From: an uncultured virus (IMG/VR IMGVR_UViG_3300031787_000080)
Lineage: Duplodnaviria > Heunggongvirae > Uroviricota > Caudoviricetes
Reading direction: 5' to 3' (one strand)
Virus record (IMG/VR): IMGVR_UViG_3300031787_000080
DNA: 20,000 bases
Part shown: piece after piece, positions 555 through 18,539 of the stretch
Numbering within the stretch: position 1 is the first letter of the stretch
Layout: each line of letters opens with the position of its first letter
The notes under the pieces: model-generated
What the model was told of the DNA's origin: nothing
What the model saw: only the letters and a program-made list of their open reading frames with translations
Databases searched by the model: none
Position numbers and translations under genes: made by a program

Positions 555-582
555 AATCGGGGCAATGAAGCCCTGATTTTTT
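555..582 (+). terminator. intrinsic terminator
   Basis: AATCGGGGC-AATGAA-GCCCTGATT then a T-run that is also the start of motif B. Confidence 0.7.
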
Positions 583-659
583 ATAACTTTCTACGATTGT
601 GCGGCACGATCATTATAAAAATCCCCCTTATTAATCGGCTCAATTTACTATAATGATAT

Positions 660-998
660 ATGTACCACGTAGACGATTGCGTTATCGGAAAAGAAATTGC
701 AAGTCAGGCTGAATATCATATCAATGTTTATGACTATGACGTTCGGTTATGTTCCGATGGCTGTTGCATTGAGGCGCGGACGGCAGCTGAACTTTGGAGC
801 AACGACTGTAAAACTTTTCTAACCGAAGATGTGGATGGGTTTTGCAATAGTGGCGAGGCCGCTCAGAAGGTAATCAATTTGGCCAAGGCGCGTGGCCTCA
901 ATGTTCATCGAGGTAATACGGCGATCTATGTGGACGGCGATAGAGATTGTTCTAACGAATTGATTTACGGATTGAAAAAATTTCCCCTAGATTACTGA
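660..998 (+). CDS. hypothetical protein (112 aa)
   Basis: ATG just after motif B plus motif A. Confidence 0.8.
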   Translation: MYHVDDCVIGKEIASQAEYHINVYDYDVRLCSDGCCIEARTAAELWSNDCKTFLTEDVDGFCNSGEAAQKVINLAKARGLNVHRGNTAIYVDGDRDCSNELIYGLKKFPLDY

Positions 999-1022
999 GA
1001 CAAGAGGCATATATAAACTACC

Positions 1023-1763
1023 ATGACAATCGAACACGATAACATCGAAGAGCGAGTTGGAAAGGGAACTTTAATTCGTATTTCCAAGCTGCTTACCATG
1101 GCGAAGGATAAGCGCACGAACGAGAATGAAGCCCATAGCGCTATGCAATCGGCTCTTGCGCTTTTGTCTCGGTATAACATTACGGCTTCTGATGTTGAGA
1201 ATTCGGGCATTTTCGAGGAAGCAGTGGGTTCTGAATCTTTTAATCCAACTGAAAATCGAAATCACTCCACATGGCGATCCCAGCTAATCAATTCCATCGC
1301 AAGCACTCACTTCTGTCATGTCTATCGACGAAACGGGGGCGAGTTTATTCTGACTGGTAAGGAAACTAATCGTGCCGCCGCGATGATGCTTTTTCAGTAT
1401 CTTTCCGTCGTGATTGAAGAAAATGCCCTTCAGGCTGTCCGCGAATACGACGGATGGGAATCGAAAAAGACTTATGGCAATGCCTATCGGCTTGGAATGG
1501 TGACTCGAATTAATGAACGACTTATTGACCAAAAGCGCCAAATTATTCAAGAGGCTTCATCCAATAACACTGAAATTGTTGCTGTCAATCCTTATGAACA
1601 GGCCGAAAAAGAAAATCAAGCCTATGTCAAATCGAAGGGCGTAAAACTGTCGTCACACGCCTCAAGCAGTAATCTTGGAAGTGGCGCGGGTTGGCATCGA
1701 GGGCGCAAAGATGGCGAGCGCGTTGGGCTTACCGCTGGGCGAGCACTAGGATATAAAAAGTGA
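1023..1763 (+). CDS. DUF2786-domain protein
   Basis: N-terminal RISKLLTMAKD..TNENEAHSAMQSALALLSRYNI matches the DUF2786 pattern; C-terminal AYRLGMVTRINERL and GWHRGRKDG are typical of the family (recognised from memory). Confidence 0.8.
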   Translation: MTIEHDNIEERVGKGTLIRISKLLTMAKDKRTNENEAHSAMQSALALLSRYNITASDVENSGIFEEAVGSESFNPTENRNHSTWRSQLINSIASTHFCHVYRRNGGEFILTGKETNRAAAMMLFQYLSVVIEENALQAVREYDGWESKKTYGNAYRLGMVTRINERLIDQKRQIIQEASSNNTEIVAVNPYEQAEKENQAYVKSKGVKLSSHASSSNLGSGAGWHRGRKDGERVGLTAGRALGYKK

Positions 1764-2188
1764 GAGATACGCAAAAAGCCAAATTTTACAAATTCGAGGA
1801 CTATATCATCAAGCGATTCCTCCAAAAAGAACTACATGATGGACTTGAATTTCGAGAAATCGAAGGGCTTGTTGGAAGAATCTGCCATTCTTATAATGTC
1901 CGCCCGCCAAAGATAAAGGTCGGTCGGCAGAATTCGAGCAAAGCCTACTACAAAACGATTGACCATAGTATCACGCTTCCGCCATGGGCTCAGAGAACAT
2001 GGACGGTAGTCCATGAAACAGCTCATGCAATTACTTATGGGAAAGGATATAAGGACCCTGGGCACGATGGTGATTTTGTTGGAGTATGGGTAGAGCTTTT
2101 TTCAAGAATGTATGACATCCCCAAGGAAACTCTTGAGTCGGAAGTTAAGCTGGCGGGATTGAGATATGTCAAATTTTCCCCCAAATAA
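1760..2188 (+). CDS. zincin-type (HEXXH) metallohydrolase, SprT/TIGR04338-like
   Basis: ITLPPWA..WTVVHETAHAIT...PGHDGDFV motif; GTGA overlap with the DUF2786 gene. Confidence 0.8.
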   Translation: MRDTQKAKFYKFEDYIIKRFLQKELHDGLEFREIEGLVGRICHSYNVRPPKIKVGRQNSSKAYYKTIDHSITLPPWAQRTWTVVHETAHAITYGKGYKDPGHDGDFVGVWVELFSRMYDIPKETLESEVKLAGLRYVKFSPK

Positions 2189-2213
2189 ATCAGAAAGAAA
2201 TCATATATAAGAC

Positions 2214-2429
2214 ATGAACACCAAGCAAAATCAGGTCGCAGATGACATTTATAATCGGCTTTCCAGTTCCGCGCCTGGGTTTTATCGATATTGGTCTGAT
2301 ACGGTTGACCGATCAGTGGCCCAAGCACTAATCAAAAAGGGACCATTTTTCAGTTACGGCAATTCTTGGCGATTCAAGGCCGAAAGTCTCGGGGCTGGAA
2401 TGTATCGTGTCAAGATCATTGAAGCCTAG
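2214..2429 (+). CDS. hypothetical protein (71 aa)
   Basis: ATG 3 nt after a degenerate motif A. Confidence 0.75.
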   Translation: MNTKQNQVADDIYNRLSSSAPGFYRYWSDTVDRSVAQALIKKGPFFSYGNSWRFKAESLGAGMYRVKIIEA

Positions 2430-2500
2430 TCCCGATCAGGCCATCTTCATAAAAATCCCTTATTTTTATCGTTTCGATTCGATATAAAAAGGGAGGCTAA

Positions 2501-2965: not shown

Positions 2966-2996
2966 AAGAAAGGGGGAAGTAACTCCCTCTTTCTTT
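2966..2996 (+). terminator. intrinsic terminator
   Basis: AAGAAAGGGGGA-AGTAAC-TCCCTCTTTCTT hairpin running into motif B. Confidence 0.7.
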
Positions 2997-3073
2997 ATGA
3001 CTTTCCGTGATTATGCGCCACGATCATTAAAAATCCCCTATATCTTATATTCCAATCGGATATATAAGATATA

Positions 3074-3742: not shown

Positions 3743-4528
3743 GTGATTCAAACTTCCAATAAGAAAACAAGAGTAAAGCGCAGTCGAATTTGGACGATGC
3801 CTAAAGACGAGTTCGCTCAACTAGTGGCCTCAAGTCAAACTTATGTCGAAATTCTCCGAGCCATTAACTACACCATACGAGGAGGAGCTTTTCGAATTTT
3901 AAAAGAACGAATTGCGACAGAAATGATCGACGATTCACATATATTAAAGAATGGAAGGCAAACCATTTATGCCCATAGATTCAATACTCGGTCAGATGAC
4001 GATATATTTTGCGAAAATTCTACATACAATAGTGGCCCTGCCCTGAAAAAGAGAATGATTAAGCTAGGCTTACCTGAAGAATGCACAAAATGTGGGCTTG
4101 GTGCAACATGGAATGATGAACCTCTATCTCTGCAAGTAGACCATATCAATGGGGTGCGCAACGATAACAGATTAGAGAATTTGAGGCTTCTGTGCCCAAA
4201 TTGTCATTCTCAAACCGAAAATTTTGCTGGCAGAAAGTTGAACGCAAAAAACAAATCATGTCCAGAATGCTGCGCTAAGATCAGTGGATACCGTAAAGAT
4301 CAGAGATGCCAATCTTGTGCCAATAAGATCAGGTCTAGAGAAATGCAACTAATATCAAAACCATCAAAAGACGAGCTTCAAGATATGTTGTGGAAAATGC
4401 CCGCGACTAGGATTGCTAAGATATACAATGTGTCCGATAAAACAGTTGGTAATTGGGCTAAATCCTACAAAATTGACAAACCGAGCCGTGGACACTGGGT
4501 CAAAAAAAATACTCCCCCCCCCTTGTAG
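3743..4528 (+). CDS. HNH homing endonuclease with C-terminal Zn-finger and HTH-like region
   Basis: CTKC...LQVDHINGVRNDNRLENLRLLCPNCHSQT HNH motif, CPEC..CQSC, ATRIAKIYNVSDKTVGNWAK; inserted between tRNA genes. Confidence 0.92.
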   Translation: MIQTSNKKTRVKRSRIWTMPKDEFAQLVASSQTYVEILRAINYTIRGGAFRILKERIATEMIDDSHILKNGRQTIYAHRFNTRSDDDIFCENSTYNSGPALKKRMIKLGLPEECTKCGLGATWNDEPLSLQVDHINGVRNDNRLENLRLLCPNCHSQTENFAGRKLNAKNKSCPECCAKISGYRKDQRCQSCANKIRSREMQLISKPSKDELQDMLWKMPATRIAKIYNVSDKTVGNWAKSYKIDKPSRGHWVKKNTPPPL

Positions 4529-4594
4529 CTTAATGGATAGAGCGCAGCACTTCGGATGCTGATGTTATGGGTTCGAGTCCTATCGAGGGGGCCA
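4519..4594 (+). tRNA. tRNA-Arg(TCG)
   Basis: CCCCTTG/CGAGGGG acceptor, CAGCA-CT-TCG-GA-TGCTG, TTCGAGT T-loop, GCCA; overlaps the HNH stop codon. Confidence 0.92.
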
Positions 4595-4605
4595 AAATTT
4601 AAAAC

Positions 4606-4681
4606 ACGCCTGTAGCTCAGTGGATAGAGCATCAGCTTGCGGAGCTGAGGGTCGGAGGTTCGAACCCTCTCAGGCGTGCCA
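4606..4681 (+). tRNA. tRNA-Arg(GCG)
   Basis: ACGCCTG/CAGGCGT acceptor, TCAGC-TT-GCG-GA-GCTGA, TTCGAAC T-loop, GCCA. Confidence 0.93.
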
Positions 4682-4687
4682 ATATAC

Positions 4688-4762
4688 GGCCACGTACCCA
4701 AATGGTTAAGGGCTCCCTCTGCAAAAGGGATGTTGCGAGTTCGATTCTCGCCGTGGCCTCCA
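4688..4762 (+). tRNA. tRNA-Cys(GCA)
   Basis: GGCCACG/CGTGGCC acceptor, TCCCT-CT-GCA-AA-AGGGA, U73, CCA. Confidence 0.93.
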
Positions 4763-4806
4763 AAAATCCCCTATATTTTTGTCACAATCGGATATATAGT
4801 TAGAGA

Positions 4807-5373
4807 ATGACCCAGATTCAAATCGAAGCCGCGAAGCAAATGAAAAAGGCCTGCTATCGGAGTCGCGGGACCTTAATCAAAGCAATTCTGGCTTATGTCG
4901 AATACCTGATGCGATGTTCGGATTGCCCGCGCAATTGGCCCAAGCACAATCAAGTGAACGTTTCTGCCGAAACTCTAAAGTCTCTTGCGTGGCTTTACGG
5001 CAATTATCATACTGCGGTTTTAGGACAGAAGTTAAACAACCTTCAGTTTTGGATTGAAGAAAGTGGTCGTCAAATCCCGAGCGAATCTATCGAAGACTAT
5101 CATGTAAACTCTCTTGACAATAGGATGCTTACCCGAAGAGAGATTTGGGCTGGTGAGATTTTGAGTCACTTGGTTTTTGCGATTGTCTTTCCCGAAGAAA
5201 TGGCTCAGACGGGGCTGACTGCTGATGGAATGAATCAAAGATTCGCGGAACTTGATTATGATTTTAACTTGGTGCTTGAAGATGCTTCAGAAGGCTACGG
5301 GACGATTTGCGCATGGATGTCTAAATCAACATCGGTTGAAGTCTTGCGAGACATCTGGCACTTAAACAAGTAA
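4807..5373 (+). CDS. hypothetical protein (188 aa)
   Basis: Long ORF between motif A and a terminator. Confidence 0.85.
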   Translation: MTQIQIEAAKQMKKACYRSRGTLIKAILAYVEYLMRCSDCPRNWPKHNQVNVSAETLKSLAWLYGNYHTAVLGQKLNNLQFWIEESGRQIPSESIEDYHVNSLDNRMLTRREIWAGEILSHLVFAIVFPEEMAQTGLTADGMNQRFAELDYDFNLVLEDASEGYGTICAWMSKSTSVEVLRDIWHLNK

Positions 5374-5379
5374 GTTGAT

Positions 5380-5412
5380 AAAAATACCCCTGTCCACCAA
5401 GGGGTATTTTTT
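5380..5412 (+). terminator. intrinsic terminator
   Basis: AAAAATACCCCT-loop-AGGGGTATTTTT. Confidence 0.75.
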
Positions 5413-5492
5413 ATTACTTTCTACGATTATGGTTCACGATCATTATAAAAAATCCCCTGTTTTCGAGAAATCAAAACAATATATAAAATAGA

Positions 5493-5732
5493 ATGTTGAT
5501 TCAAGTGTATGACAGTCTTGACGGCAATTATGTCGGCGGCATCTACAAAGTCACTCGCAATGATGGCGGAGACCAATCGCAACACCAATTCATTGATGCT
5601 TGGGCTCGTGCTGTGGAACAAGCGAAAAGCATTGGAGAGGATTGGGGAGAAGATGACATTTTCGAGGCTCTGAAAGAGTTTGGTTGGGAAGTCGTGCTTC
5701 CAGCCATTGACATTTTGCCAGTACAATACTAA
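5493..5732 (+). CDS. hypothetical protein (79 aa)
   Basis: ATG 6 nt after motif A. Confidence 0.8.
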   Translation: MLIQVYDSLDGNYVGGIYKVTRNDGGDQSQHQFIDAWARAVEQAKSIGEDWGEDDIFEALKEFGWEVVLPAIDILPVQY

Positions 5733-5733
5733 A

Positions 5734-6063
5734 ATGACCGCAAAACAAGCAAAAGAAATTCAACAAGAAGTCATTGTGAAGCAAAACAATGATAACGCAA
5801 GCATCATCGACAATCTTCTTGAAAAGGGTATTTTTAAGAAGATTGAAGACGCGGCTAGGGATGGTAGAAATTCAACTCGTATTGGGCGTCCTTACCACGA
5901 TACTGGTTTTGAAACTCCAGAATTCCGTTGTGGCGACTTTAGCCTAAATTATGTTTTGGGCTTCATTGACAACAATGCGATGCGCGAGATTATCATTCAA
6001 AAACTCAAAAACCTGGGATATACTGTGTCTGTTGAGGCCTCTAGTTTGATAATTGAGTGGTAA
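5734..6063 (+). CDS. hypothetical protein (109 aa, start revised to ATG 5734)
   Basis: MTAKQAKEIQ... begins 1 nt after the upstream stop; its TAA is the start of the next motif A. Confidence 0.75.
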   Translation: MTAKQAKEIQQEVIVKQNNDNASIIDNLLEKGIFKKIEDAARDGRNSTRIGRPYHDTGFETPEFRCGDFSLNYVLGFIDNNAMREIIIQKLKNLGYTVSVEASSLIIEW

Positions 6064-6111
6064 AAATCCTTTCTTTTCATTGATGCAATCGGATATATGA
6101 TTTAGGTCACG

Positions 6112-6396
6112 ATGAGAAACGAAGACGCCTCTAGCATTAATTTTGACATTGATAAGCCCTTTCATGTATTTATTTGCGATGGATGTCGGGAGGCTGGCCC
6201 GTATACTCAATATGGCATAAGTCATCTTGACGCTGCTGGTCGCTTTGCAGAACGATGGAACAAGAATCTTATGTCATGCTCTAAATCGCATTATGGCTAT
6301 GGGAAACAATGGGAGGAAGCCCCCCGTAAACCTGAACAGTACGCAAACCATCACTATTTCCAAGACGAGCGAGGCAACAAACTCTTGATTATCTAA
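6112..6396 (+). CDS. hypothetical protein with CxxC (94 aa)
   Basis: After motif A; FICDGCREAGP...AAGRFAERWN loosely resembles Lar-like restriction-alleviation Zn-ribbon C-termini (weak). Confidence 0.7.
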   Translation: MRNEDASSINFDIDKPFHVFICDGCREAGPYTQYGISHLDAAGRFAERWNKNLMSCSKSHYGYGKQWEEAPRKPEQYANHHYFQDERGNKLLII

Positions 6397-6466
6397 CCAA
6401 GAGTTTGTTGCAATATAATTATTTTTCACGACAAAATGATCGTGCCGCATAACCATAGAAAGTTAT

Positions 6467-6492
6467 AAAAAAGAAGGGGGCAGTGCCCCCTT
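6467..6492 (-). terminator. intrinsic terminator
   Basis: AAGGGGGCA/TGCCCCCTT stem; minus-strand U-tract merges with motif B. Confidence 0.65.
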
Positions 6493-7177
6493 AGTGTTTG
6501 AGAAAAGCAATATCTTTCTTATGCTTGGGATTGAAGCACAGACGACAGGCCGCGCAATTTGTTTTCTTATCACTTCCTTTATGAAGTGCCAAGTCATAAG
6601 GGCAAAGAGTCGTATTATCGTCCTGGTCTGCAATCGTATCAATGACTTGCGCGGTTCGGAATCCGTTATCCTTCGCAATCTTGCGCTCAATCGGAGACTC
6701 TACAGAGGCCACAATATGTAGGTTTTCGGGGAAACTTCCCTTGGCATAACTGAAGCCCGCCGCAATCATACAACGCACGTCATGAGTATACGTCCATACC
6801 GTCACGTCGGGATTCTGCTTGCACCATTCAATAACTTCCGTTAGATACGGCACGTCTAGCGCATGAACACCGTTCCCGTCAGAAGTAAAGAAGTCGCCAG
6901 AAGTATGCAAACGAACCAATCTGGCACCTTTTGAAGTCAGGCGGTCAAGGTCATCATGCCGCGCCGCAGACTTTTTTTGTTGCTGATTTACAAGAAACTT
7001 CCGAGTGTAACACCCTCCGCCCTTACTCGGCAAGTGAGGACAGGTGCCAGGACAGGTGCCTTCACCCTTGCCAGCATCCCCGACAGGGCGATAAGTCGTC
7101 GCCACCTTATTGAGTTTATCCTTGGGGTCGCTCAGTTTGGAGTTCTGCGACCAAGGAGAAATCAAAGTCGTGTTCAT
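6491..7177 (-). CDS. GP88-like phage protein (CxxxC...CY and RLHxSGDF motifs; possible Fe-S or radical-SAM-related)
   Basis: NSKL, TCPGTCP...GCY, VRLHTSGDFF, WTYTH and C-terminal CP...CAACRLC; ATG 3 nt after motif A. Confidence 0.7.
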   Translation of the reverse strand: MNTTLISPWSQNSKLSDPKDKLNKVATTYRPVGDAGKGEGTCPGTCPHLPSKGGGCYTRKFLVNQQQKKSAARHDDLDRLTSKGARLVRLHTSGDFFTSDGNGVHALDVPYLTEVIEWCKQNPDVTVWTYTHDVRCMIAAGFSYAKGSFPENLHIVASVESPIERKIAKDNGFRTAQVIDTIADQDDNTTLCPYDLALHKGSDKKTNCAACRLCFNPKHKKDIAFLKH

Positions 7178-7294
7178 GCTTTATATATCCGATTGTGCTA
7201 CGGCAGAAAGGGGATTTTTTATGACTTTCTAAGGTTATGTGCCACGATCATAAAAAATCCCTTGCTTTTTGTGTTTCAAGCGGATATATAAGAT

Positions 7295-7771
7295 ATGTTG
7301 ATTTTGCCTAAGTTTCACAGCCGATTTGGTGATAAGGGTTTTGCACGCACGCTAGGCAGGCTTATCAGATTTTATTTTTGGCCTGTTGCCTTTTTTGTCA
7401 TTTCTCTTGTCTGCCGATTTCAGACTAACCATCATGCAGCGTTTATCTTTAGTGTAGCCACACTGGGAGTGGTAATCGTTCTGTGCGTTTTATCGGGGTT
7501 CGTTGCAAAACTTTCTGAGTCAAGCAATGAACAAGTAGATGCTTTTTGGGCTTTTCTTTCGCATACGGCAAAGGGCATTTCTGTTGGGTTTTCGCTTTCT
7601 GTTTTGAGTTTCATCTTGTGCGTGGCAAGCGTTGTAATTTATAACACCCAAGTCAATGACTTGGTGTCTATAACTCTATCGTCTCTTATCGTGGCAAATC
7701 TTGTGGTAATGGGCTCTATCGTAAAAGAAACCTTTGAAGACATCGTGCTTGCTTTTAGGGAGCAAAAATAA
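7295..7771 (+). CDS. hypothetical membrane protein (about 4 TM)
   Basis: Four hydrophobic stretches; ATG 3 nt after motif A. Confidence 0.8.
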   Translation: MLILPKFHSRFGDKGFARTLGRLIRFYFWPVAFFVISLVCRFQTNHHAAFIFSVATLGVVIVLCVLSGFVAKLSESSNEQVDAFWAFLSHTAKGISVGFSLSVLSFILCVASVVIYNTQVNDLVSITLSSLIVANLVVMGSIVKETFEDIVLAFREQK

Positions 7772-7865
7772 TGCGACACTATATCATTTTTATGACTTTC
7801 TACGATTGTGTGGCACGATCATAAAAAATCCCCCTAATAAAGCTGAGTAATCGGATATATAATGT

Positions 7866-7945
7866 GGGGCAAATAGCTCAGTAAAGACATATGGGAATGT
7901 AACAGTAGAGGTTTCCGCGTATGTTCAAATCCTGTTGCTCCACCA
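7866..7945 (+). ncRNA. tRNA-like element or pseudo-tRNA
   Basis: GGGGCAA/TTGCTCC acceptor plus ACCA, TAGCTCAGT D-like start, GTTCAAATC T-loop-like; no recognisable anticodon arm. Sole content between two motif A copies. Confidence 0.6.
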
Positions 7946-7986
7946 AAAATCCCCTATATTTTCCGCGTTCATGCCATATATAAACT

Positions 7987-11041: not shown

Positions 11042-11051
11042 AGGTTCAAAC

Positions 11052-11078: not shown

Positions 11079-11136
11079 ATAACTTTCCATGATTATGGGC
11101 CACGATCATTAAAAATGGAAACAAAAAAATGAGACC

Positions 11137-11319
11137 CTATAAGGGCCTCTCGGAGATTTCTTTCTTCCATTCGGTAATGGTTCGATACCATCCTGGGTAC
11201 GTATCGGTTTTCCATCCGCCTTGGTATCTAAAGATATTACAAACCGCCACCCAGCCGTGACCATTGTGATAGCCAATTTGCTTCGAGCCGTCTGACAAAA
11301 CCGTGGTTTGGATTCTCAT
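11137..11319 (-). CDS. hypothetical protein (60 aa)
   Basis: ATGA overlap with the upstream gene. Confidence 0.7.
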   Translation of the reverse strand: MRIQTTVLSDGSKQIGYHNGHGWVAVCNIFRYQGGWKTDTYPGWYRTITEWKKEISERPL

Positions 11320-11528
11320 TGCGACTTTGCATTGCTGCGAACTTGGCAGCAGTGACAGGGAAAAAACATGTTATTCACCAAAATCATAAGAATGGCGACA
11401 TTAAGCCAATCTTGAGTATCAAGTGGAATGCCCAGCGAGAAAACAGAATTACACAGCACAAGAAGAGCCAACGGGATGAGAGTGATTGTGTTATTGATGA
11501 TATTGTTCTTGATGGTCGAAAAACTCAC
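11316..11528 (-). CDS. small membrane protein (2 TM)
   Basis: GTG 3 nt after motif A; two hydrophobic segments. Confidence 0.7.
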   Translation of the reverse strand: MSFSTIKNNIINNTITLIPLALLVLCNSVFSLGIPLDTQDWLNVAILMILVNNMFFPCHCCQVRSNAKSQ

Positions 11529-11617
11529 ACTTTATATATCCGATTAGACCACGAAAAACAAGGGATTTTTCAATAATCGTGACACATAATCTCAGAAAGT
11601 TATAAAAAATCCGCTTC

Positions 11618-12058
11618 CTAAAAGGAAACGGATTTGAGTGTGTCTAGTATGGCTTCGTTCGATTTGATTTCGGCTTCCATTTCTTTAAGTCTTTGTTTAG
11701 CCCGAGGTATCGAATCCGATAAACGCCTAATTCTATCCTTTCTCCACTTTTCAAGATTCCCCCGCAAAATGTCATTGTCCAAAATCGCTTTCACCACCAA
11801 GTCCTGAAGTTCTTGAGGCACTTGAAACGACTGGCGTCCAGGTCCATGTTTATTGGGCTCCCATCCTTTGAAACGCCATTCACCGTTATCAAAAGTTGCG
11901 CTAATAACATGGCTCATTTGCCTAAAGTGAATAATAGGGGCATTTGAAAGAAGAGTTCCATAACCGACTTCAAACTGATTGTTATAGTGTCCTTCACCCA
12001 TGAAACACACCCCATATTTGCCCAAATCACCTTGGTGGTTATAACATCTTGTGTTCAC
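11618..12058 (-). CDS. hypothetical protein with C-terminal coiled-coil-like region
   Basis: GTG 3 nt after motif A. Confidence 0.8.
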   Translation of the reverse strand: MNTRCYNHQGDLGKYGVCFMGEGHYNNQFEVGYGTLLSNAPIIHFRQMSHVISATFDNGEWRFKGWEPNKHGPGRQSFQVPQELQDLVVKAILDNDILRGNLEKWRKDRIRRLSDSIPRAKQRLKEMEAEIKSNEAILDTLKSVSF

Positions 12059-12098
12059 ACTTTATATATCCGATTAGGCCATGAAAAACAAGGGATTT

Positions 12099-12443
12099 TT
12101 ATCGAACCCAGTGAATTGCCACGGTTCGCTCACCCTGTTGAAGCCCCAGCCCGTGAACACTTGGCTTGCTTACAGCAATTTCACGCGCTTCCTCGAAAGT
12201 CTTAGTTACTAGGTCGCCAGTCAAATCATAAATGGCACTCCACGCTTCTGCATCTTGCTCAGACGCGAAAGTAGCCAAAAGACCAACCGTCATAGGGTCT
12301 GGCGCAGGAGTCGTTGCATTTACAGCCGCAAAACGACCACTACCAAGTGAAATCATCACTACAGCATCGGGGAAAGATTCATCCCCGCCAAGAACATCAT
12401 TGACTTCAATGTCCAAATCACTCAGAATATCTTCGAGGGGCAC
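12099..12443 (-). CDS. hypothetical acidic protein (114 aa)
   Basis: GTG 3 nt after motif A; stop TAA is the start of the next motif A. Confidence 0.8.
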   Translation of the reverse strand: MPLEDILSDLDIEVNDVLGGDESFPDAVVMISLGSGRFAAVNATTPAPDPMTVGLLATFASEQDAEAWSAIYDLTGDLVTKTFEEAREIAVSKPSVHGLGLQQGERTVAIHWVR

Positions 12444-12525
12444 CCTTTATATATCCGATTAGAACAAGAAAAACAAGGGATTTTTATGACTTTCTACAAT
12501 CATGTGCCACACCCAAAGAACACAC

Positions 12526-12692
12526 CAAAATCTCGGATGGAGCGAACACACTTTTGTGCGCCGCTCAAGCCGAGAAACATACAGAAAACAGAAAATGCCA
12601 GAATACTTAGATGCTACATGGTTTTGTTCTCCTCGATGGTGTTTCGCATATTGATTTGATTTTCCTTCGAGTTTAGAGCTGTTGCCAACTCT
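12526..12692 (-). ncRNA. candidate structured RNA (ORF-poor motif A unit)
   Basis: Starts with hairpin AGAGTTG-GCAA-CAGCTCT; also CTCGA/TCGAG and TCTCGG..GAGCG..GCAC-AAAA-GTGT..CGCTC..CCGAGA; only very short ORFs. Confidence 0.4.
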
Positions 12693-12811
12693 TCTTTATA
12701 TATCCGATTAGAGCCATGCAAAAAGGGGATTTTTTATATAATGATCGTATCACATAATCTCGGAAAGTCATAAAGAAAGGCCCCATTTTAGGGGCCTTGT
12801 TTTCTTAGACG

Positions 12812-12982
12812 CTAGTCGTCATAATCGTCATTCCGACGTTCTTTTCCTCGGCGGCGAGACCAATTTAGGTCCTCACGAGCATGCTTCCCCGCCTTTTCTT
12901 TCTTTCTCTTGTTTTTGATGTCTTTGGGCACTAGCCCCCAGTGTTTTTCTGGCCAATCCGAGTTTCGGTTGGGATTCATCAT
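12812..12982 (-). CDS. small basic protein (56 aa, start revised to ATG 12982)
   Basis: Motif A, SD GGAGG, MMNPNRNSDWPEKHW...; terminator at about 12772-12798. Confidence 0.7.
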   Translation of the reverse strand: MMNPNRNSDWPEKHWGLVPKDIKNKRKKEKAGKHAREDLNWSRRRGKERRNDDYDD

Positions 12983-13117
12983 TACCCTCCTTTTTATATA
13001 TCCGATTGAAACCATTCAAAAAGGGGATTTTTATAATGATCGTGGCGCATAATCGCAGAAAGTTATAAAGAAAGGGGCATTAGCCCCTAGTCTTTACTTA
13101 TGCCCCAGAAGGCAACT

Positions 13118-13312
13118 TCACTTAGCCGTCGGCTTGAGATAAAACATTCCGTCAGTGGCGTCCACACGTTCAAGAGGTAATTGTTCAGTCACCCCAAGTG
13201 ACTCCGCAAAACCAAGAAGCGAATAATACGCACTTTCCACCACGCCCATGTCGTTGTCAAGAAGCTCATTGAAGAGTAGAAGGAATTGCTTTTGTATGAG
13301 TCCCTTATTCAC
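13118..13312 (-). CDS. hypothetical protein (64 aa)
   Basis: GTG 3 nt after motif A; terminator at about 13067-13088. Confidence 0.75.
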   Translation of the reverse strand: MNKGLIQKQFLLLFNELLDNDMGVVESAYYSLLGFAESLGVTEQLPLERVDATDGMFYLKPTAK

Positions 13313-13352
13313 TCTTTATATATCCGATTAGAACACGAAAGAAAAGGGATTT

Positions 13353-13748
13353 TTATGAAGCCCACTCGAAGCGATTCCGCTCAATATGATTCTGAAACAC
13401 GCGGACAACGGCATCAATGTCCGTGAGTTTTTCATACTCCATATGAGTGTTGAGGCCACCACGGTAGTCCTTTTGCCCCTTAACGCATCGATAGTAGAAC
13501 TCAGGTCGCGGAATGCTTCCACCCAGGTGAACATAAAGATTGTCCGAGTGCAAAATCACTTCACCAAGACAAGCCACGCCAGCCTTGTTTGAGCGAATAG
13601 AATACTGCCCGTCTCTCAGGCCAAGACCGTGAGCAATTTCTTCAAGATACTGCTTTGCAAGACGATGAAAAGTTCGCTTAGCCCTATCATTATAGCCACT
13701 ATGGGTGGAAGCGATATGAGCCATCATCCTAATGTCTTTAACGTCCAT
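13353..13748 (-). CDS. conserved-looking hypothetical protein (131 aa)
   Basis: KRTFH..AK..L...GLGL..GQYSIRSNKAG...GEVILH.D.LYV...YR...GQKDY.GG.N; motif A plus SD. Confidence 0.85.
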   Translation of the reverse strand: MDVKDIRMMAHIASTHSGYNDRAKRTFHRLAKQYLEEIAHGLGLRDGQYSIRSNKAGVACLGEVILHSDNLYVHLGGSIPRPEFYYRCVKGQKDYRGGLNTHMEYEKLTDIDAVVRVFQNHIERNRFEWAS

Positions 13749-13879
13749 GGTTTGTTCCTACATTATATATCTGATTGAAATACAAAAGAAAAGGGATTTT
13801 TTATAATGATCGTGGCGCATAATCTCAGAAAGTTATAAAGAAAGCCCCGTTTTCAGGGGCATTTCTTTGAAGTCAGTTA

Positions 13880-14341
13880 TTAGAACCCAAAAGACGGGGT
13901 TTTCAGCAAGGTGGGCAGTTCTTGAATCGGCACCAACTTCACCTTCCCGTTGGTCTTTTGGTGGACCAAATCCGCCCACTTTTCATCCAAGTGCGTGTTA
14001 GCGTTGTAAACGATGAGCCCGCCGTCGTAATTCCCGATAATGCTCATCAATCGGGCCACATTGTTCTTCACCATAGACCCGATGTAAAGTTGCTGGGTGG
14101 CGAAGATTTCAACGGCAATTTTCTTGCCGTTAGTCACCACTTCAAGGTCAATGGTGTGTTCAAATCCAGGCCGCTCAACGACCGCTTGCGGAACAACCAT
14201 ACCCTTTCCAACGACGGCCTCGAAGGCCTGTTGGACAACAAGTTCGAGCTGAGAGTGCTCGTTGCTGGTGGAGCGGAAAAGCTTTAGGGGCCAATTGTCG
14301 GGGATTTGAAGAAGGGCGACGATGGTTGCAATCTCAGTCAT
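13880..14341 (-). CDS. putative PD-(D/E)XK restriction-endonuclease-like fold protein
   Basis: E..V...F, IDLEV....KKIAVEIF, then GGLIVY; the catalytic Lys of ExK is absent (EIF). Motif A plus strong SD; terminator at about 13837-13860. Confidence 0.55.
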   Translation of the reverse strand: MTEIATIVALLQIPDNWPLKLFRSTSNEHSQLELVVQQAFEAVVGKGMVVPQAVVERPGFEHTIDLEVVTNGKKIAVEIFATQQLYIGSMVKNNVARLMSIIGNYDGGLIVYNANTHLDEKWADLVHQKTNGKVKLVPIQELPTLLKTPSFGF

Positions 14342-14444
14342 GATTGTTTTCCTCTCCTTATATATCAGATTGGGCTACGAAAGAAAGAGGATTTTTTATG
14401 ACTTTCTGCGATTGTGTGACACAATTCAATGCAAGCCAAATATA

Positions 14445-14658
14445 AACAAAATCCCTGGCCACGGAGCCTCATGCTCATGCGCGACCAGGGTGCCGTCAGT
14501 TTTTGGATAATCTCTATACTGTTTGCAACCAATATAGAACCACGTAATCGCGTCCTGAGACTGACCGTTGCATTTTCACGCTCTGCAACTAGAGGGGAAG
14601 CGGATACTCTTTGGTGTGCAGTCCACTTCTCAGCACTAGCGAGGTTGAGGCCTCGTTC
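14445..14658 (-). ncRNA. candidate multi-hairpin RNA (motif A unit with no start-bearing long ORF)
   Basis: Stems CGAGG/CCTCG, GAAGTGGA/TCCGCTTC, GTTGCA/TGCAAC, CTATATTG/CAGTATAG, TCAGT/ACTGA and CCCTGGTCGCG/CGTGGCCAGGG followed by ATTTTGTTT. Confidence 0.5.
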
Positions 14659-14746
14659 TTCTTATATATCCGATTAGGCCAATGTAAAAAGGGGATTGTT
14701 TATAAAAAAACCCCCGCATTTTCAAACACAATCGGATATATAAAAT

Positions 14747-15145
14747 ATGACCGAAGTCTTTGGACAGACCACAGTCGCCGAGGCACTGCACTCGTCAGTT
14801 CACGAAGTCGCAAATCTCATTCTTGACAAAGGTTACCAAATCTTTACAGCTGACTGCCGCCCCGACATTCACTTCGCATGGCCCAATCGTGACTTTTACT
14901 TCACTGACGGGAAGCGCGTTGGATATTGCCAGTATGACAATCTCAATGGACTTGTATTTTGTCAAGTGTTGAAGGGTCATGGGTTTGGGAATGTCTACGA
15001 TTATAAAAGCCCCCTGAGCGATTTAGTAGAAAAGACCCTAAACGAAATGCATGAACGACAATATCAAGACTTTGCAGAGTTTTTGGAATACAGAAAGCAA
15101 ATTGGTGTACTGTATGAAGTGAAGTCTTTTGAAGTGAAGTTGTAA
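14747..15145 (+). CDS. hypothetical protein (132 aa)
   Basis: ATG 3 nt after motif A; terminator at about 15142-15182. Confidence 0.8.
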   Translation: MTEVFGQTTVAEALHSSVHEVANLILDKGYQIFTADCRPDIHFAWPNRDFYFTDGKRVGYCQYDNLNGLVFCQVLKGHGFGNVYDYKSPLSDLVEKTLNEMHERQYQDFAEFLEYRKQIGVLYEVKSFEVKL

Positions 15146-15242
15146 ATCTCAGGGGCAAAATAAGCCCTTGATATTTACTTTTATAACCAAAATGATCGTG
15201 CCACACAATCGTAGAAAGTTATAAAAAAGACTAGGGCAAGCC

Positions 15243-15431
15243 CTAGTCCAAATCCTCAAGAAGTTCAGCGTCGCCTTCATCCATCTCGTTGTCAGAATAC
15301 CATCGAGAAAATGGGATACTGGCTTTGAAATCTTCCCATGCTTGCCCCAATTCATCTGCTGAATTTACAGAGAATGATGCCGTATAAGCGGCACTACTGT
15401 CTTTATCACAAGCCCGAAAGATTCCAGTCAT
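15243..15431 (-). CDS. small acidic protein (62 aa)
   Basis: ATG 3 nt after motif A; terminator GACTAGGGC-AA-GCCCTAGTC at 15229-15248. Confidence 0.75.
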   Translation of the reverse strand: MTGIFRACDKDSSAAYTASFSVNSADELGQAWEDFKASIPFSRWYSDNEMDEGDAELLEDLD

Positions 15432-15471
15432 GCCTTATATATCCGATTGGGACAAAACAAACGGGGGATTT

Positions 15472-15867
15472 TTAGATTTGACTCTCTCGAACAGGAATCC
15501 AGTTCTTTTGACGTTCAACTCTTTGGCCAAACTTACCAACCGTGGAAATCAACTCACGAAGTGAAGCGTATCCCTTCTCTCGCTCATTGCCCTCGACAAT
15601 CCCGTAAAACAGGAAGTCATGAGCCTCGGACTGGCGGGCAGTCGAATCTTCGGGGTGAATCATCACACCATTTTCGTCCACGGGGCTGCCCTCGATTATA
15701 AACCATCGCCAAGTAGGAGCAACAAAGAACAGTTTCAAAACCACCATCGGATTCGGATTCGAGTCTTGAGAGTAGAGCGGAGGAAGAATGTCCAAAATCT
15801 CATCGGGGAGCAAGTGAGAAGCCTGCTTCATGAGTTCAGAGTAGGAAAGTTCAGCGGTGGTGGACAT
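15472..15867 (-). CDS. DUF2958-family protein
   Basis: LPPLYSQD...VVLKLF....WRWFIIE...FYGIVEG.ERE.GY.SL.EL.......VER...W.P pattern. Confidence 0.75.
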   Translation of the reverse strand: MSTTAELSYSELMKQASHLLPDEILDILPPLYSQDSNPNPMVVLKLFFVAPTWRWFIIEGSPVDENGVMIHPEDSTARQSEAHDFLFYGIVEGNEREKGYASLRELISTVGKFGQRVERQKNWIPVRESQI

Positions 15868-15922
15868 TTTCTGTTAACCTCTGTCTTATATATCCGATTA
15901 GAATACGAAAGAAAGGGGTTTT

Positions 15923-16147
15923 TTATAATGAGCTTGGCCTATACTCACGGACCACAGGTGCATCATAGACATCGTTGGAAATGTCACTCTGAAGGTCACC
16001 ACAATCCATTATTTTGCTGCACTTATCAAAAAAAGATTTATCAATGCTTTCACCAAGAAGTTCAGCACACAAAGCCGCGACCTGAAAGTTGTATTCGCTC
16101 GGAACACCAGATTCAGCCATGAGCTTTAGGTTTCGCATTTTATCCAT
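15923..16147 (-). CDS. hypothetical protein (74 aa)
   Basis: ATG 4 nt after motif A; stop overlaps the next motif A. Confidence 0.75.
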   Translation of the reverse strand: MDKMRNLKLMAESGVPSEYNFQVAALCAELLGESIDKSFFDKCSKIMDCGDLQSDISNDVYDAPVVREYRPSSL

Positions 16148-16307
16148 ATTTTCATATATCCGATTAGAACACGAAAAACAAGGGTTTTTTTATAATGATC
16201 GTGTCACACAATCGTAGAAAGCCATAAAGAAAAAGACCCGTCCATCCATGACGGGCCTTTCTTCCTCTTCTTTTTGTACTTGTATTTTTTTATTCTGGAT
16301 TTTTGAT

Positions 16308-16515
16308 AGAGTGTGACTTGGGAAACCCAAACAAGATACAAATGAAAATGGTTAATTACTCCATCCTCATAATCTCTTGCATCTGATATACGCCCATCGT
16401 ATACTTCGACACCGCTAAGTTTCAAGACAACGCGCCCGCCTTGCAAGGGACTCGAACCCAAGCTTCGATGTTAAACGTTTCTCAGATTGTGAAACTTAAT
16501 TCACTATCACACTCT
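16308..16515 (-). ncRNA. candidate ~208-nt structured RNA with T-loop arm
   Basis: 10-bp closing stem AGAGTGTGAT/GTCACACTCT; TAAGTTTCA/TGAAACTTA encloses GGG-TTCGAGT-CCC; TATACG/CGTATA; AGATGCAA/TTGTATCT with inner ATGAGGATGG/CCATTTTCAT; TTGGG/CCCAA. Terminator at about 16226-16262. Confidence 0.6.
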
Positions 16516-16623
16516 TCTTTATATATCCGATTAGAGCCATGCAAAAAGGGGATTTTTTAATGATCGTGGCGCACAATCGTAGAAAGTCATAAAAAAGACG
16601 GATGCTCATATTGAGCATCCAAT

Positions 16624-16824
16624 TTAGAGTCTGCGGTATACCGTTACCCCATTGCGATTATGAGACTTCATATAGCCTAGATTTTCCAGTTTTTCAAGTC
16701 TCTCAGCCAAAATCACATCATCAAAAGACACTTTAAGGGACAATTGATAGAGCGTTTTTCGCTCGTTGGTGCCACCGAATTGTCTCAGAATGGCATGGTC
16801 GTATGCGGTCAGATTCTTATCCAT
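16624..16824 (-). CDS. small winged-helix-like protein (66 aa)
   Basis: LTAYDHAILRQF....TLYQLSLKV....LAERLEKLENLGYMKS......VYR resembles a wHTH; terminator at about 16591-16620. Confidence 0.6.
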   Translation of the reverse strand: MDKNLTAYDHAILRQFGGTNERKTLYQLSLKVSFDDVILAERLEKLENLGYMKSHNRNGVTVYRRL

Positions 16825-17042
16825 TAGGACACTCGCTCAAGCCGAATCACACCCGCATCATCGAGTTGCATAAGTGCTGGGCAAACGACGTAAGACCTAT
16901 TGCAGTAATAGCCGTCAGCAGGAAATGCAACACAATCCCCATGAACATCATGGTTTTGTTCGCGCCAAGGCATCATATCCATGCCTTTCAGAAGTTCCTT
17001 GATGGCTTGCTTGAGAATGTCATTTTCTTCTTGAACCGTCAT
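16824..17042 (-). CDS. hypothetical protein (72 aa)
   Basis: ATG 3 nt after motif A; TAATG overlap with the next gene. Confidence 0.75.
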   Translation of the reverse strand: MTVQEENDILKQAIKELLKGMDMMPWREQNHDVHGDCVAFPADGYYCNRSYVVCPALMQLDDAGVIRLERVS

Positions 17043-17100
17043 ATCTTATATATCCGATTAGACCACGAAAGAAAGGGGATTTTTAATCAACGGCGTAAAC

Positions 17101-17138
17101 AGAAAAGTTTAGCCCCAACAAATAATTGTTGGGGCTAA
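17101..17138 (-). terminator. strong intrinsic terminator
   Basis: TTAGCCCCAACAA/TTGTTGGGGCTAA perfect stem; minus-strand ACTTTTCT tail. Confidence 0.75.
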
Positions 17139-17394
17139 CGACATGCCTATCTTGTCTTGGTTTTTGAGTTTTCAGTTACACTTTCTTTCTCATGCTGGTA
17201 AGGTTCGTCCAGCTACTATAAGGGCTACAGGGCCTGGTCATCGAGCACAATCTGAGTCTCGCGCTTTCCTCAGTCTTGTTACTTTATATATCCGATTAGA
17301 GCCATGCAAAAAGGGGATTTTTTAATGATCGTGCCACATGATCACGGAAAGTCATAAAGAAAGACAGATAACTTGTATCTGCCTTTCCAAGTTT

Positions 17395-17799
17395 TCAATC
17401 CCCGATGGAGTAGTATTGTTTGAACACCACTACTTGAATGTTCGCCATTATGCAGTGAACAGAAATGTCCCCGCCCTGCCATGCATTGCCAATGTCATAA
17501 AGAACATTTGCAAGTTCGGAGTTTTCAAGCCCAGCCGTGGTGAAGAGATTGTATCTGACCGCACTGTAAGACGCATTGCCCCAGGCCTCTTCAACATTTT
17601 GGATTCGATTGAACGCATTGTCGCTTGAAATGTCAATCCAAAGCCGCTCTCCATTTGACAAATCGGCGATATAGTATTCTCCCCGATTGGTTACAACCTT
17701 GCGAATGGCATGATTCAGAAAGTGTTCGCCCGACCGCGTGGGAAGGATTTTTTCAGGCTGAGTAGGATACTCGGCTGTGATTGTGGGGACTTTGATCAT
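17395..17799 (-). CDS. hypothetical protein (134 aa)
   Basis: Motif A, SD-like AGGTGG, ATG; terminator at about 17356-17386. Confidence 0.8.
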   Translation of the reverse strand: MIKVPTITAEYPTQPEKILPTRSGEHFLNHAIRKVVTNRGEYYIADLSNGERLWIDISSDNAFNRIQNVEEAWGNASYSAVRYNLFTTAGLENSELANVLYDIGNAWQGGDISVHCIMANIQVVVFKQYYSIGD

Positions 17800-17941
17800 C
17801 TTGACTTTCCACCTAGTTTATATATCCGATTAGAATACAAAAGACAAGGGATTTTTTTAATGATCGTGCCACATAAAAACAGAAAGCCATAAAAAATCCC
17901 CTTTCTGCATGGCTCCAATCGAATATATAAAGAGAGGAACA

Positions 17942-18424
17942 ATGACTACTGAACAAGTCGCCGCCGCCCTCGCCACCAAGCGCAAGGGAACAATATTCAC
18001 CCTTCGCGTTGCACGTCCCGCCAAACTTCGCGCTGGTTCGCGAGATATGGATATTGTCAAGGCTTCCGTTATGCAAGGCATGGCGAACACTGACTATGCC
18101 AGCCGTGGCCCCGTTCGCGAAGCCGTGGCCCTGGGAGAACGTGATGCCCCTGCCCTGCCCAAGCATATTGAAAAGACATTCACGGAAAACGACGTGAAGT
18201 TTTGGAAAGGCCACAATGGCGAAATCTACTTGCCCGTTTGCCTTACGGGGAATCATGCCGAAGTCACCTGGCTTCAGGATGGCGAGGAAGTCAGCCTGGA
18301 CGAAATCAAGGACCATCTGCTTGCTTCCGAATATGCAAGCCGCACCGATAAGGATGACCTTGCAGAACGCGGCCAAGTGCCCTTTATCGGCGTAAATGTC
18401 AAGCACATCGAATCGGTAAACTAA
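17942..18424 (+). CDS. hypothetical protein (160 aa, start revised to ATG 17942)
   Basis: Motif A, SD GAGAGG, MTTEQVAAALATKRKG...; terminator at about 18442-18463. Confidence 0.85.
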   Translation: MTTEQVAAALATKRKGTIFTLRVARPAKLRAGSRDMDIVKASVMQGMANTDYASRGPVREAVALGERDAPALPKHIEKTFTENDVKFWKGHNGEIYLPVCLTGNHAEVTWLQDGEEVSLDEIKDHLLASEYASRTDKDDLAERGQVPFIGVNVKHIESVN

Positions 18425-18539
18425 GCCAGACCATAAAGACTAGGGGCGCAAGCCCCTTTCTTTATAACTTTCTATGATTGTGTGCCACGATCATTATAAA
18501 AATCCCCTTTCTTTTGTGTTCTAATCGGATATATAAAAC

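Follow-up and report, generated by a model that had tools for sequence, protein, structure and literature searches.

What function is served by a word of about 40 bp that recurs at every kind of junction between small phage genes? The question is raised by a 20,000-nucleotide stretch (hereafter the window) of the uncultured Caudoviricetes virus held in IMG/VR as record IMGVR_UViG_3300031787_000080, in which this word, motif B, stands between divergent, convergent and tandem genes alike. An initial annotation of the window, made from the sequence alone, described B as an orientation-independent dyad with a bulged hairpin and proposed that it binds a dimeric protein, listing a recombination site, a stoperator-like repressor site or a DNA organising, protecting or entry signal as options. 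Here we show that B is a polar element that is best treated as an asymmetric site in duplex DNA. The sequence evidence suggests that it acts as a protein-binding boundary or operator module within cassettes resembling the PeSL cassettes of T4-type phages, an explanation to which we give a little less than even credence.

The window corresponds to bases 40,530-60,529 of one 378,848-bp contig (G+C 40.6%) that encodes rIIA, rIIB, a DNA polymerase, a helicase, a primase, three sigma-like proteins, a terminase, a portal protein and a major head protein. Because the closest named match to the head protein is gp27 of Bacillus phage G (46.5% identity), and given this gene content, the source genome is, as judged from its predicted proteins, a phage-G-like jumbo phage. 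The phage is almost unchanged across runs of 12 freshwater-type studies, and four other assemblies of it are 99.9-100% identical; the record is catalogued as linear and free of end repeats, and another assembly spans its ends. Its early region comprises the first 59.5 kb, as set by 51 copies (genome 1.9-59.5 kb) of a second word, motif A (AAAAATCCCC-N18-AATCGGATATATAA), whose position suggests that it is a promoter. B is restricted to a block of small, mostly family-less genes with their own predicted promoter and terminator; in the window, 8 of the 41 open reading frames (ORFs) scanned had a Pfam family match at the thresholds used.

Matches to the core GATTGTG-N3-CACGATC with three or fewer mismatches numbered 40 on the two strands of the window, against 1.80 expected, and none of 200 shuffled sequences reached 40. 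Using a profile built from the 21 best copies, an nhmmer search of the genome recovered 22 copies in the window (E 5e-15 to 3e-5; Table 1) and five degenerate ones outside it (genome positions 4768, 7023, 8424, 34601 and 35325), and the other 320 kb gave no match below E 0.07. The furthest copy lies at 59.1 kb of the 378.8-kb genome, and all 22 + 5 sites are intergenic. The twelve copies first named (577, 2991, 5407, 18460, 7215, 10119, 17859, 6435, 9121, 11073, 15191 and 8593) all carry B, while the list fell short in number, as ten further copies (7787, 11564, 12481, 12734, 13028, 13799, 14392, 16187, 16551 and 17316) were found. The mean spacing in the window is 851 bp and the median 770 bp, in line with the earlier estimate of roughly 1 kb.

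The surroundings of the 22 copies give B a direction. In 15 copies the left arm lies against the T-tract of an intrinsic terminator and in six against the back of a divergent promoter A, a single copy (7787) being next to neither; the right arm enters the A-tract of a co-directional promoter A in 15 of 22. The terminator stems next to B all differ from one another, and terminator-like hairpins are enriched in the window (60 against 20.5 expected). At tandem junctions 12 of the 15 copies point with transcription, and in the three inverted copies (8589, 12481 and 14392) the left arm lies against A and the distal right arm is degenerate in every case. The three junction classes originally described (terminator to promoter, between divergent promoters, and between convergent genes with no promoter) were all recovered, and the inverted copy at 8593 was verified from its context. 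Independence of orientation was overstated: the left arm faces a T-tract or a divergent A in all but the copy at 7787.

B is also more than an upstream piece of the promoter, as the initial annotation had argued. Four intact consensus copies (6433, 9118, 11073 and 15189) lie between convergent terminators with no promoter A nearby, and since these copies persist at promoter-less junctions, a boundary function beyond any promoter function is suggested. Conversely, about 30 copies of A in genome 1.9-40 kb have no B. There, promoter A directly follows the preceding stop codon with neither a terminator nor B, which indicates that A is independent of B; B goes together with a terminator or a divergent promoter at the junction.

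Alignment of the copies in a common orientation yields the consensus TTYTTTAT-RACTTTCT-RN-GATTRTG-YGN-CACGATCATT, in which sixteen columns are invariant and columns 13, 14, 19, 22 and 24 vary freely. Although the dyad had first been given most weight, the best-conserved part is TTTAT-RA-CTTTC, ahead of the dyad, where 10 columns are identical in all 22 copies. The outer ends TTTTTAT...ATAAAAA, once counted as part of the element, correspond to a terminator T-tract on the left and to the promoter's A-tract on the right, where the sequence varies. The half-sites of the dyad are imperfectly complementary (T18 stands opposite G28 in 19/22 copies), the left-arm variant GATTATG occurs in 13/22 copies and is never compensated in the right arm, and the pair of columns 23-31 is broken in 13/22. 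The proposed check for covariation of the arms returned no compensatory change in 14 pairs, with a paired fraction of 77.3% against a shuffled mean of 78.5%, and single-strand DNA folds of six of the 22 copies reached -2.1 to -5.1 kcal/mol (z 0.0 to -2.7). We thus abandoned the bulged hairpin and any attC-like single-stranded form, and it is because compensatory changes are absent and folds weak that we treat B as a duplex site.

These results bear directly on the idea that B is a site-specific recombination site, whether attC-like or of the invertase type, in which a bulged hairpin would be acted on by a dedicated recombinase. Its position at cassette boundaries in both orientations and its partial dyad with a variable 3-bp centre would suit such a site. 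In addition to the lack of covariation and the weak folding, however, inversion at the dyad would be expected to generate hybrid L-L or R-R sites, whereas all 22 copies are L-R. No integrase or recombinase, including an IntI-type tyrosine recombinase, was found in the ORFs scanned, only a sub-threshold 97-aa match to Phage_int_SAM_1 (E 0.0037), and about 340 ORFs scanned with PHROGs or Pfam contained no repressor or integrase family. In the contigs of three runs, each from a different one of the 12 studies, we saw no structural variant, gain, loss, inversion or joint at B; their breaks and loose ends fall only at repeated A or B words and represent branches of the assembly graph. One apparent variant at 18492/18495 was traced to a cross-laid contig of the copy at genome 34.6 kb. 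The recombination-site option is therefore largely refuted, and we consider it very improbable.

A short natural form of B is informative about how the element might be read. Upstream of rIIA (genome 4668-4785), a 25-bp unit (TTTTTTATGACTTTCTATCACGATC) is repeated 4.7 times in perfect tandem, ahead of a fuller B and a promoter. The unit retains the left and right blocks and omits GATTRTG-N3, bringing the blocks exactly 10 bp, or one helical turn, closer together. Such an arrangement is compatible with one or two proteins reading the element from a single face of the helix, and it sits poorly with a promoter whose -35/-10 geometry is fixed. In the full-length element, likewise, the half-site centres lie 10 bp apart and conserved columns alternate with free ones, which, together with the tandem form shortened by one turn, would fit the binding site for a possibly dimeric, sequence-specific protein that was first suggested. 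A palindromic terminator (ATCCCCGATC..GATCGGGGAT) precedes the tandem array, and a 12-bp unit (TCACTCTCCAAG) is repeated 3.3 times after rIIB.

The geometry towards the neighbouring promoters differs between the two sides. On the left, the divergent TATATA lies at +54 from the dyad centre in five of six copies and at +53 in the sixth; on the right, 13 of 15 copies have a standard GGATATATA box, with its TATATA at +44 to +49, the exceptions being 577, whose variant box was scored at +54, and 10119, in which no box was found. Promoter A ends in TATATAA, and an ATG very often follows exactly three bases further on, so that many early messages would be leaderless; other A-driven messages have a strong AGGAGG-type ribosome site. 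A sigma-70 reading of either A or B was rejected, as sigma-70-like sites in the window number 38 against 36.6 expected by chance.

Repeated intergenic phage words of 30-40 bp are most often promoters, and B could in principle be a second promoter, recognised by one of the three sigma-like proteins that the phage encodes or by a modified host polymerase and used for later re-expression of the same genes or for antisense RNA at convergent junctions. The co-orientation of intact B with the downstream gene at tandem junctions would be expected of a promoter, as would the ATGACT and CACGAT/GATCAT blocks lying 16-19 bp apart. The would-be spacer between these blocks is itself conserved (GATTRTG, G23), however, and it is here that the tandem short form drops 10 bp. 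Three copies point away from the gene that they abut, and sigma-70-like sites are at the chance level given above. Genome-wide, ACTTTCT occurs 59 times and CACGATC 39 times, against 47 and 33 expected, with no enrichment outside the first 61 kb, and neither replication nor structural genes, nor any gene outside the early region, have a B upstream. On this evidence we judge a second promoter to be improbable, if less so than a recombination site.

The position-specific conservation of B, its polarity, the rigid geometry of its left side, the phase-preserving short form, its survival at promoter-less junctions and its retention of GATC, described below, together argue for recognition of the duplex by a protein. 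In the model that we propose, B would be the middle module of a cassette composed of an intrinsic terminator, B and early promoter A, and such cassettes would keep apart the small units of early transcription in an 18-kb block devoted to anti-defence and host takeover. The rigid left arm (T-tract, AT, RACTTTCT) would face the point where the upstream unit ends or, elsewhere, the back of a divergent promoter, and the imperfect dyad GATTRTG-N3-CACGATCAT would face the downstream promoter, its centre 44-49 bp upstream of the TATATA box. A sequence-specific protein, perhaps a dimer with an additional contact to the left arm, would then occupy every unit boundary; it could be encoded by the phage or by the host. 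Bound B might act as an operator or insulator, blocking read-through behind terminators and setting the activity or timing of adjacent promoters in this block only. As a by-product, the repeated B + A module may offer homology for the shuffling of cassettes, as PeSLs do in T4-type phages.

One phage-encoded candidate for the binder is the 66-aa product of the small ORF at 16624-16824, which the initial annotation had singled out. Its HTH_27 match falls below the cut-off (E 8.9e-4), the AlphaFold2 (AF2) model (pLDDT 72.9) has an H-H-H-strand-strand order, and the top Foldseek matches are all winged helix-turn-helix regulators (TMq 0.65-0.80, E >0.03). The winged-helix fold is thus supported by the model and the structural matches, while its link to B rests on location. 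No homologue was recovered in five related genomes that lack B, in a search that had no positive control, and no relative was found in the viral contigs collection. Two winged-helix proteins encoded on other contigs (P0002 and P0003) are 73% identical.

Several observations weigh against a protein-bound boundary module. The candidate binder is a model of moderate confidence whose Foldseek E-values exceed 0.03, and its absence from relatives would be expected anyway for most small early genes. The gap that separates B from promoter A differs by up to 6 bp, which is loose for a factor that touches RNA polymerase. The terminators ahead of B look competent alone, so that a roadblock may be redundant, and the roughly 30 promoters A in genome 1.9-40 kb do without B. 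Promoter A, the start sites and the terminators are themselves predicted from sequence only. A plain operator model would not predict that 17 GATC are kept in a block otherwise purged of this word, and the sub-families of B, together with three promoter cassettes identical over 43-52 bp, show copying, for which selection on B is not needed.

This last point leads to an account that requires no binding protein, in which B is a conserved spacer of PeSL-like cassettes, kept alike by copying or gene conversion and useful only as homology for recombination. The linked variants of the sub-families (CTAC-GATTGTG versus CTGA-GATTATG) would follow from it, as would the three cassettes with dyad centres at 12751, 16570 and 17335, which share their identical bases from the right arm of B through promoter A, spacer included. 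These identical stretches show that copying occurs, and no more. The spacer account also accommodates the confinement of B to a block of small, mostly family-less genes at every junction type, the decayed remnants (one at 17085-17108 and a second near 15925-15945) and one empty divergent junction at about 14690, which reads GGGGATTGTTTAT/AAAAAAACCCC; PeSLs behave in this way (PMC2839356, PMC4122927).

Comparisons with other genomes indicate rapid turnover, as the spacer account would have it. Forty IMG/VR loci encode a capsid protein 73-98% identical to that of this phage. B, with three or fewer mismatches allowed, was found in none of the ten larger related records searched, and promoter A had no real match in five (capsid protein 73-91% identical in the records used for either search); one of five records has an ArdC homologue. 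No alignable early DNA is shared with the next relatives; genome-wide there are 22 high-scoring segment pairs of at least 300 bp, none of them below 75 kb. The exact B pattern is absent from the viral contigs collection and gave two chance matches only in genome contigs, while 45 of the 49 stretches found in metagenome contigs belong to five contigs of the same phage (99.9-100% identical) and the other four are single chance matches in unrelated GC-rich or AT-rich contigs. The promoter A 14-mer gave only single chance matches in viral contigs, phages in GenBank gave no nucleotide match, and one raw-read run (X21) contained no reads of this phage. Copying alone does not explain why invariant columns are interleaved with free ones or why the short form keeps helical phase; the neighbouring terminator stems have not been copied, no gain, loss or inversion at B was seen at strain level (four 99.9-100% assemblies; three runs), and keeping GATC against a regional purge requires either selection or very recent spread. 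We consider it unlikely, though less so than the other rival readings, that B is a spacer and nothing else.

The initial annotation had remarked that the GATC in the right arm could make B methylation-sensitive, and this word proved important, since it persists in B while the surrounding 15 kb have been cleared of it. Over the whole genome, GATC occurs about as often as expected (1443 against 1685), and outside the block it stands at 0.85-0.91 of expectation. The desert at 4328-19297 contains 18 GATC in all, 17 of them in B: 16 in right arms, all as CGATCA, and one in the left arm of the copy at 17316. With B masked, window 4400-19250 (13.7 kb) contains one GATC, where 56.6 (Markov model) or 50.5 (genome density) would be expected. 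Intergenic gaps hold 17 GATC in 1,534 bases, as part of B, against one in 13,317 bases of units. The words GTAC (0.37), TTAA (0.46), AGCT (0.48) and AATT (0.62) are also lower in the block than elsewhere, and these are equally low in gaps and units.

The avoidance acts at the level of synonymous codons in the block. In a crude ORF set, made up of the longest non-overlapping ORFs of at least 55 aa, Asp before C in the desert is encoded by GAC in 22/22 cases, whereas GAT is used in 69/143 otherwise (p 2.6e-6), and Ile after a codon ending in G is ATC in 2/46 cases against 94/193 otherwise (p 2.3e-9); no such codon bias is present in genome 1-40 kb or beyond 61 kb. Amid this purge at synonymous sites, 16 of the 20 B copies in window 4400-19250 retain the right-arm GATC, which argues for constraint on the right arm. 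Three accounts of the retained words are conceivable: binding may require them, with the bound protein acting as their shield; a GATC-specific activity may target them; or B may have spread once the purge had relaxed.

The second of these possibilities amounts to another explanation of B, in which its GATC is a unique mark, deliberately kept, that directs a GATC-recognising activity of host or phage to the non-transcribed unit boundaries, all other GATC of the block having been removed; the activity could come from a nickase that acts on one strand, from a restriction-type nuclease or from a methylase-sensing factor. Were this so, strand-specific nicks might insulate units, host restriction might make harmless cuts between self-sufficient units, or methylation might serve as a clock that separates incoming from replicated DNA. 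The concentration of 17 of the 18 GATC of window 4400-19250 in B, with every right-arm one in the same CGATCA context, is what such a mark would produce; full or partial depletion of GATC (window about 1-19.3 kb) coincides with the extent of B, nine more CGATCA sites lie within about 400 bp at the right border of the desert, and the asymmetry of B would allow a strand-specific nick. Yet four B copies lost GATC and otherwise remain B. The phage genes gave no match to the D12 Dam, N6_N4, T1-type Dam, MutH/Sau3AI or DpnII families, and a search for MT-A70 was likewise negative, but its positive control gave no match either. In control regions of the Dam/SeqA type, several GATC lie a few helical turns or less from one another and a Dam methylase is present, whereas B has one GATC per copy (two in that at 17316) at a median distance of 770 bp.

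Most telling in this regard are relatives with equally deep deserts that have neither B nor a GATC-bearing junction element. In a 358-kb genome (G001; 33.7% G+C, capsid protein 90% identical, CCGG not avoided), a 31-kb stretch at 157,315-188,500 contains two GATC, with 0/31, 2/34 and 6/41 per 10 kb. Its junctions consist of a palindromic terminator, a second hairpin with varying and covarying stems, and a TTGACA-type promoter. In a more distant locus (L184; rIIA 38% identical), nine GATC occur over 19.7 kb against 74.7 expected, and seven cassettes combine a terminator with a 75-bp palindromic bidirectional promoter centred on AAAAAATC-N3-GATTTTTT. Since relatives without B have such deserts, the purge is independent of B, and it predates B. 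The GATC-free early block and the junctions of terminator, symmetric element and promoter are traits of the lineage, and B is specific to this phage. We consequently regard a dedicated GATC mark as improbable, less so than a second promoter. In the GATC-poor early stretch of L184, a gene for a D12-class (Dam-type) adenine methylase lies beside one for a UvdE-type endonuclease (4781-6817).

Avoidance of restriction sites extends well beyond this block. CCGG is absent genome-wide (0 against 519 expected), as are RGATCY (AGATCT, AGATCC/GGATCT, GGATCC) and CGATCG (0 against 101) and the words ACGCGT, CGCGCG, CGGCCG, CTCGAG, GCGCGC, GGCGCC and GGGCCC; GAGCTC occurs twice and GTCGAC once. Because so many words are missing, the phage appears to be under heavy restriction pressure in general, which points to a host range rich in restriction systems. 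In genome 1-40 kb, 113 of 227 GATC stand in a CGATCA/TGATCG context, against 27% in the rest of the genome.

Both edges of the desert have features of their own. At the left edge, beside two tRNA clusters, lies an HNH endonuclease gene (3743-4528, +) whose family has at least three more copies in the genome and which has four GATC of its own, as a recent insertion would. The non-coding right border (0.6 kb) contains several long inverted repeats and, by eye, three G-run units (GGGGGGT..AAA..TTTT..AGGTA.CC), and one sister assembly has a contig that stops within it, at window 19499. The border could serve as an origin, for packaging or as a signal for entry. Contig depth differs across about 18.6-19.5 kb (79.5 against 48.5 in run X10), but strain mixtures make any terminal-repeat inference from this difference unusable.

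Table 1. Coordinates in the window of motif B copies and of the features discussed with them. A, promoter A; E, nhmmer E-value.
Feature	Position	Strand	Context and evidence
B copy	577..621	+	terminator-B-A-variant promoter; E 2.6e-14
B copy	2991..3035	+	terminator-B-A; E 4.1e-14
B copy	5407..5450	+	terminator-B-A-variant; E 2.2e-10
B copy	6433..6472	-	convergent terminators on both sides, no promoter; E 4.4e-11
B copy	7215..7260	+	between divergent A promoters; E 5.9e-13
B copy	7787..7831	+	after stop of ORF 7295-7771 without hairpin; then A and tRNA-like unit; E 4.2e-14
B copy	8589..8625	-	inverted upstream of A(+); right arm CACGATT, no GATC; E 8.6e-11
B copy	9118..9158	-	between convergent terminators, behind ArdC-like gene 9195-10070(-); E 9e-14
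B copy	10119..10164	+	between divergent promoters; E 1.1e-13
B copy	11073..11116	+	between convergent terminators; E 8.3e-13
B copy	11564..11609	-	terminator-B-A(-); right arm CACGATT; E 9.2e-12
Degenerate B copy	12481..12510	+	inverted upstream of A(-); right arm lost; E 3.2e-5
B copy	12734..12777	-	terminator-B-A(-); E 1.6e-11
B copy	13028..13072	-	terminator-B-A(-); E 2.6e-14
B copy	13799..13842	-	terminator-B-A(-); E 1.2e-13
B copy	14392..14427	+	inverted upstream of A(-); right arm CACAATT; E 3.2e-10
B copy	15189..15228	-	between convergent terminators; E 2.6e-12
B copy	16187..16231	-	terminator-B-A(-); E 2.1e-13
B copy	16551..16596	-	terminator-B-A(-), directly downstream of winged-helix ORF; E 4.8e-15
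B copy	17316..17361	-	terminator-B-A(-); extra GATC in left arm (GATCATG); E 2.6e-13
B copy	17852..17896	-	between divergent promoters; left half-site degenerate (TTTTATG); E 3.8e-8
B copy	18458..18502	+	terminator-B-A(+); E 2.3e-13
Decayed B remnant ACTTTTCTGTTTACGCCGTTGATT	17085..17108	-	between terminator and A(-); GATC lost; read upstream of A at 17083, missed by nhmmer
Divergent A(-)/A(+) pair without B, empty junction GGGGATTGTTTATAAAAAAACCCC	14678..14712		sequence reading
66-aa winged-helix protein, candidate B binder	16624..16824	-	HTH_27, AF2, Foldseek
GATC desert	4328..19297		18 GATC: 17 in B, 1 at codons 1-2 of ORF 17395-17799(-)
Non-coding, repeat-rich right border of desert	19190..19850		4 copies of 24-nt unit CCCGATAGTTTYCYCGATCATAAC; 9 GATC, all CGATCA, in about 400 bp

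Some units of the block may not encode proteins. Four promoter-A-driven units without a convincing ORF (12500-12700, 14430-14660, 16260-16520 and 17140-17285, all on the minus strand) may specify small RNAs, and a T-arm-like sequence (GGTTCGAGTCCC) lies within the unit at 16260-16520. Searches for known RNA families returned five tRNAs only, at the gathering threshold and at E 0.1 alike. Downstream of the B copy at 7787 and its promoter A at 7825, a tRNA-like sequence on the plus strand (7866-7945; GGGGCAAATAGCTCAGT ... GTTCAAATCC ... TGCTCCACCA) was called by neither ARAGORN nor Rfam. At window 10231-10359, 127 bp are missing from contigs of three runs, one run from each of three studies, with a supporting side just 26 letters long, and this skip may be a strain variant or a short-repeat artefact.

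The control and reshuffling of small early-gene arrays, many of them anti-defence, are poorly known in giant uncultured phages, and the window offers a very clean example of a three-part junction, made up of terminator, boundary element and promoter, in which the element is separable from the promoter. The lineage holds an early block free of GATC across hosts of differing restriction pressure, and one member has re-introduced the word once per gene boundary. A functional GATC here would tie the avoidance of restriction sites to the architecture of gene units and to regulation, a link that has not been described for T5 or T4; a GATC without function would set an upper limit on the strength of the purging selection that acts at present. 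The A and B words may also serve as ready-made parts (a promoter and a candidate insulator) and as markers for a widespread freshwater phage.

Among known systems, resemblances of B to IHF-like, oriC 13-mer-like and P1 pac-like sites were dropped as unsupported. Outside the lineage, the desert is best compared with T5-like phages, in which the pre-early DNA that enters first must be free of restriction sites while the rest is protected, with a repeat-rich non-coding border (PMC10644984; bioRxiv 10.1101/866236). Both the first-step-transfer DNA of T5/BF23 and the block described here have small early genes in both orientations, freedom from restriction sites relative to the rest of the genome, a repeat-rich non-coding border and anti-restriction functions, here the ArdC-like gene inside the early block. 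Stepwise entry is established for T5/BF23, whereas here the likeness is one of sequence, and T5 is not known to have an element that puts the avoided site back at every gene boundary. Closer by descent, the junctions of the related lake jumbo phages L184 and G001 likewise place a terminator, a symmetric element and an early promoter near the start codon in a GATC-poor early region, but their sequences are unrelated to B and have no GATC in the junction.

In function, the nearest model by analogy is probably the stoperators of Cluster A mycobacteriophages, the sites of L5 gp71-type repressors, which are described as an orientation-dependent protein block in short intergenic spaces (PMC9283540). 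In both systems more than 20 asymmetric sites stand in short intergenic spaces or at promoters, their orientation is correlated with transcription, and a protein block to elongation and initiation is proposed. Stoperators as presented there are 13-mers bound by a monomer and distributed genome-wide in temperate phages, whereas B is a partial dyad of about 40 bp confined to one early block, behind intrinsic terminators, in a jumbo phage without a recognisable repressor or integrase; the analogy fails on genome-wide spread, and the cognate repressor of a temperate phage has no recognised counterpart in the roughly 340 ORFs scanned, one small winged-helix protein apart.

In architecture, the counterpart is the PeSL cassette of T4-type phages, a stem-loop terminator with an early promoter (Arbiol et al. 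2010, PMC2839356; Comeau et al. 2014, PMC4122927). Both systems repeat an intergenic unit that joins a stem-loop terminator to an early promoter preceded by an A/T-rich tract, in dozens of copies amid small, mostly unknown and dispensable-looking early genes, each gene being a self-contained unit. The PeSL promoter follows the sigma-70 consensus, whereas promoter A is not sigma-70-like; the stems beside B are not conserved; and here a separate, non-A/T partial-dyad core of 30 bp, B, is able to stand alone between two terminators. What is new in this phage is B as a separable, operator-like linker in a PeSL-like junction, and B as the sole refuge of GATC in a purged block.

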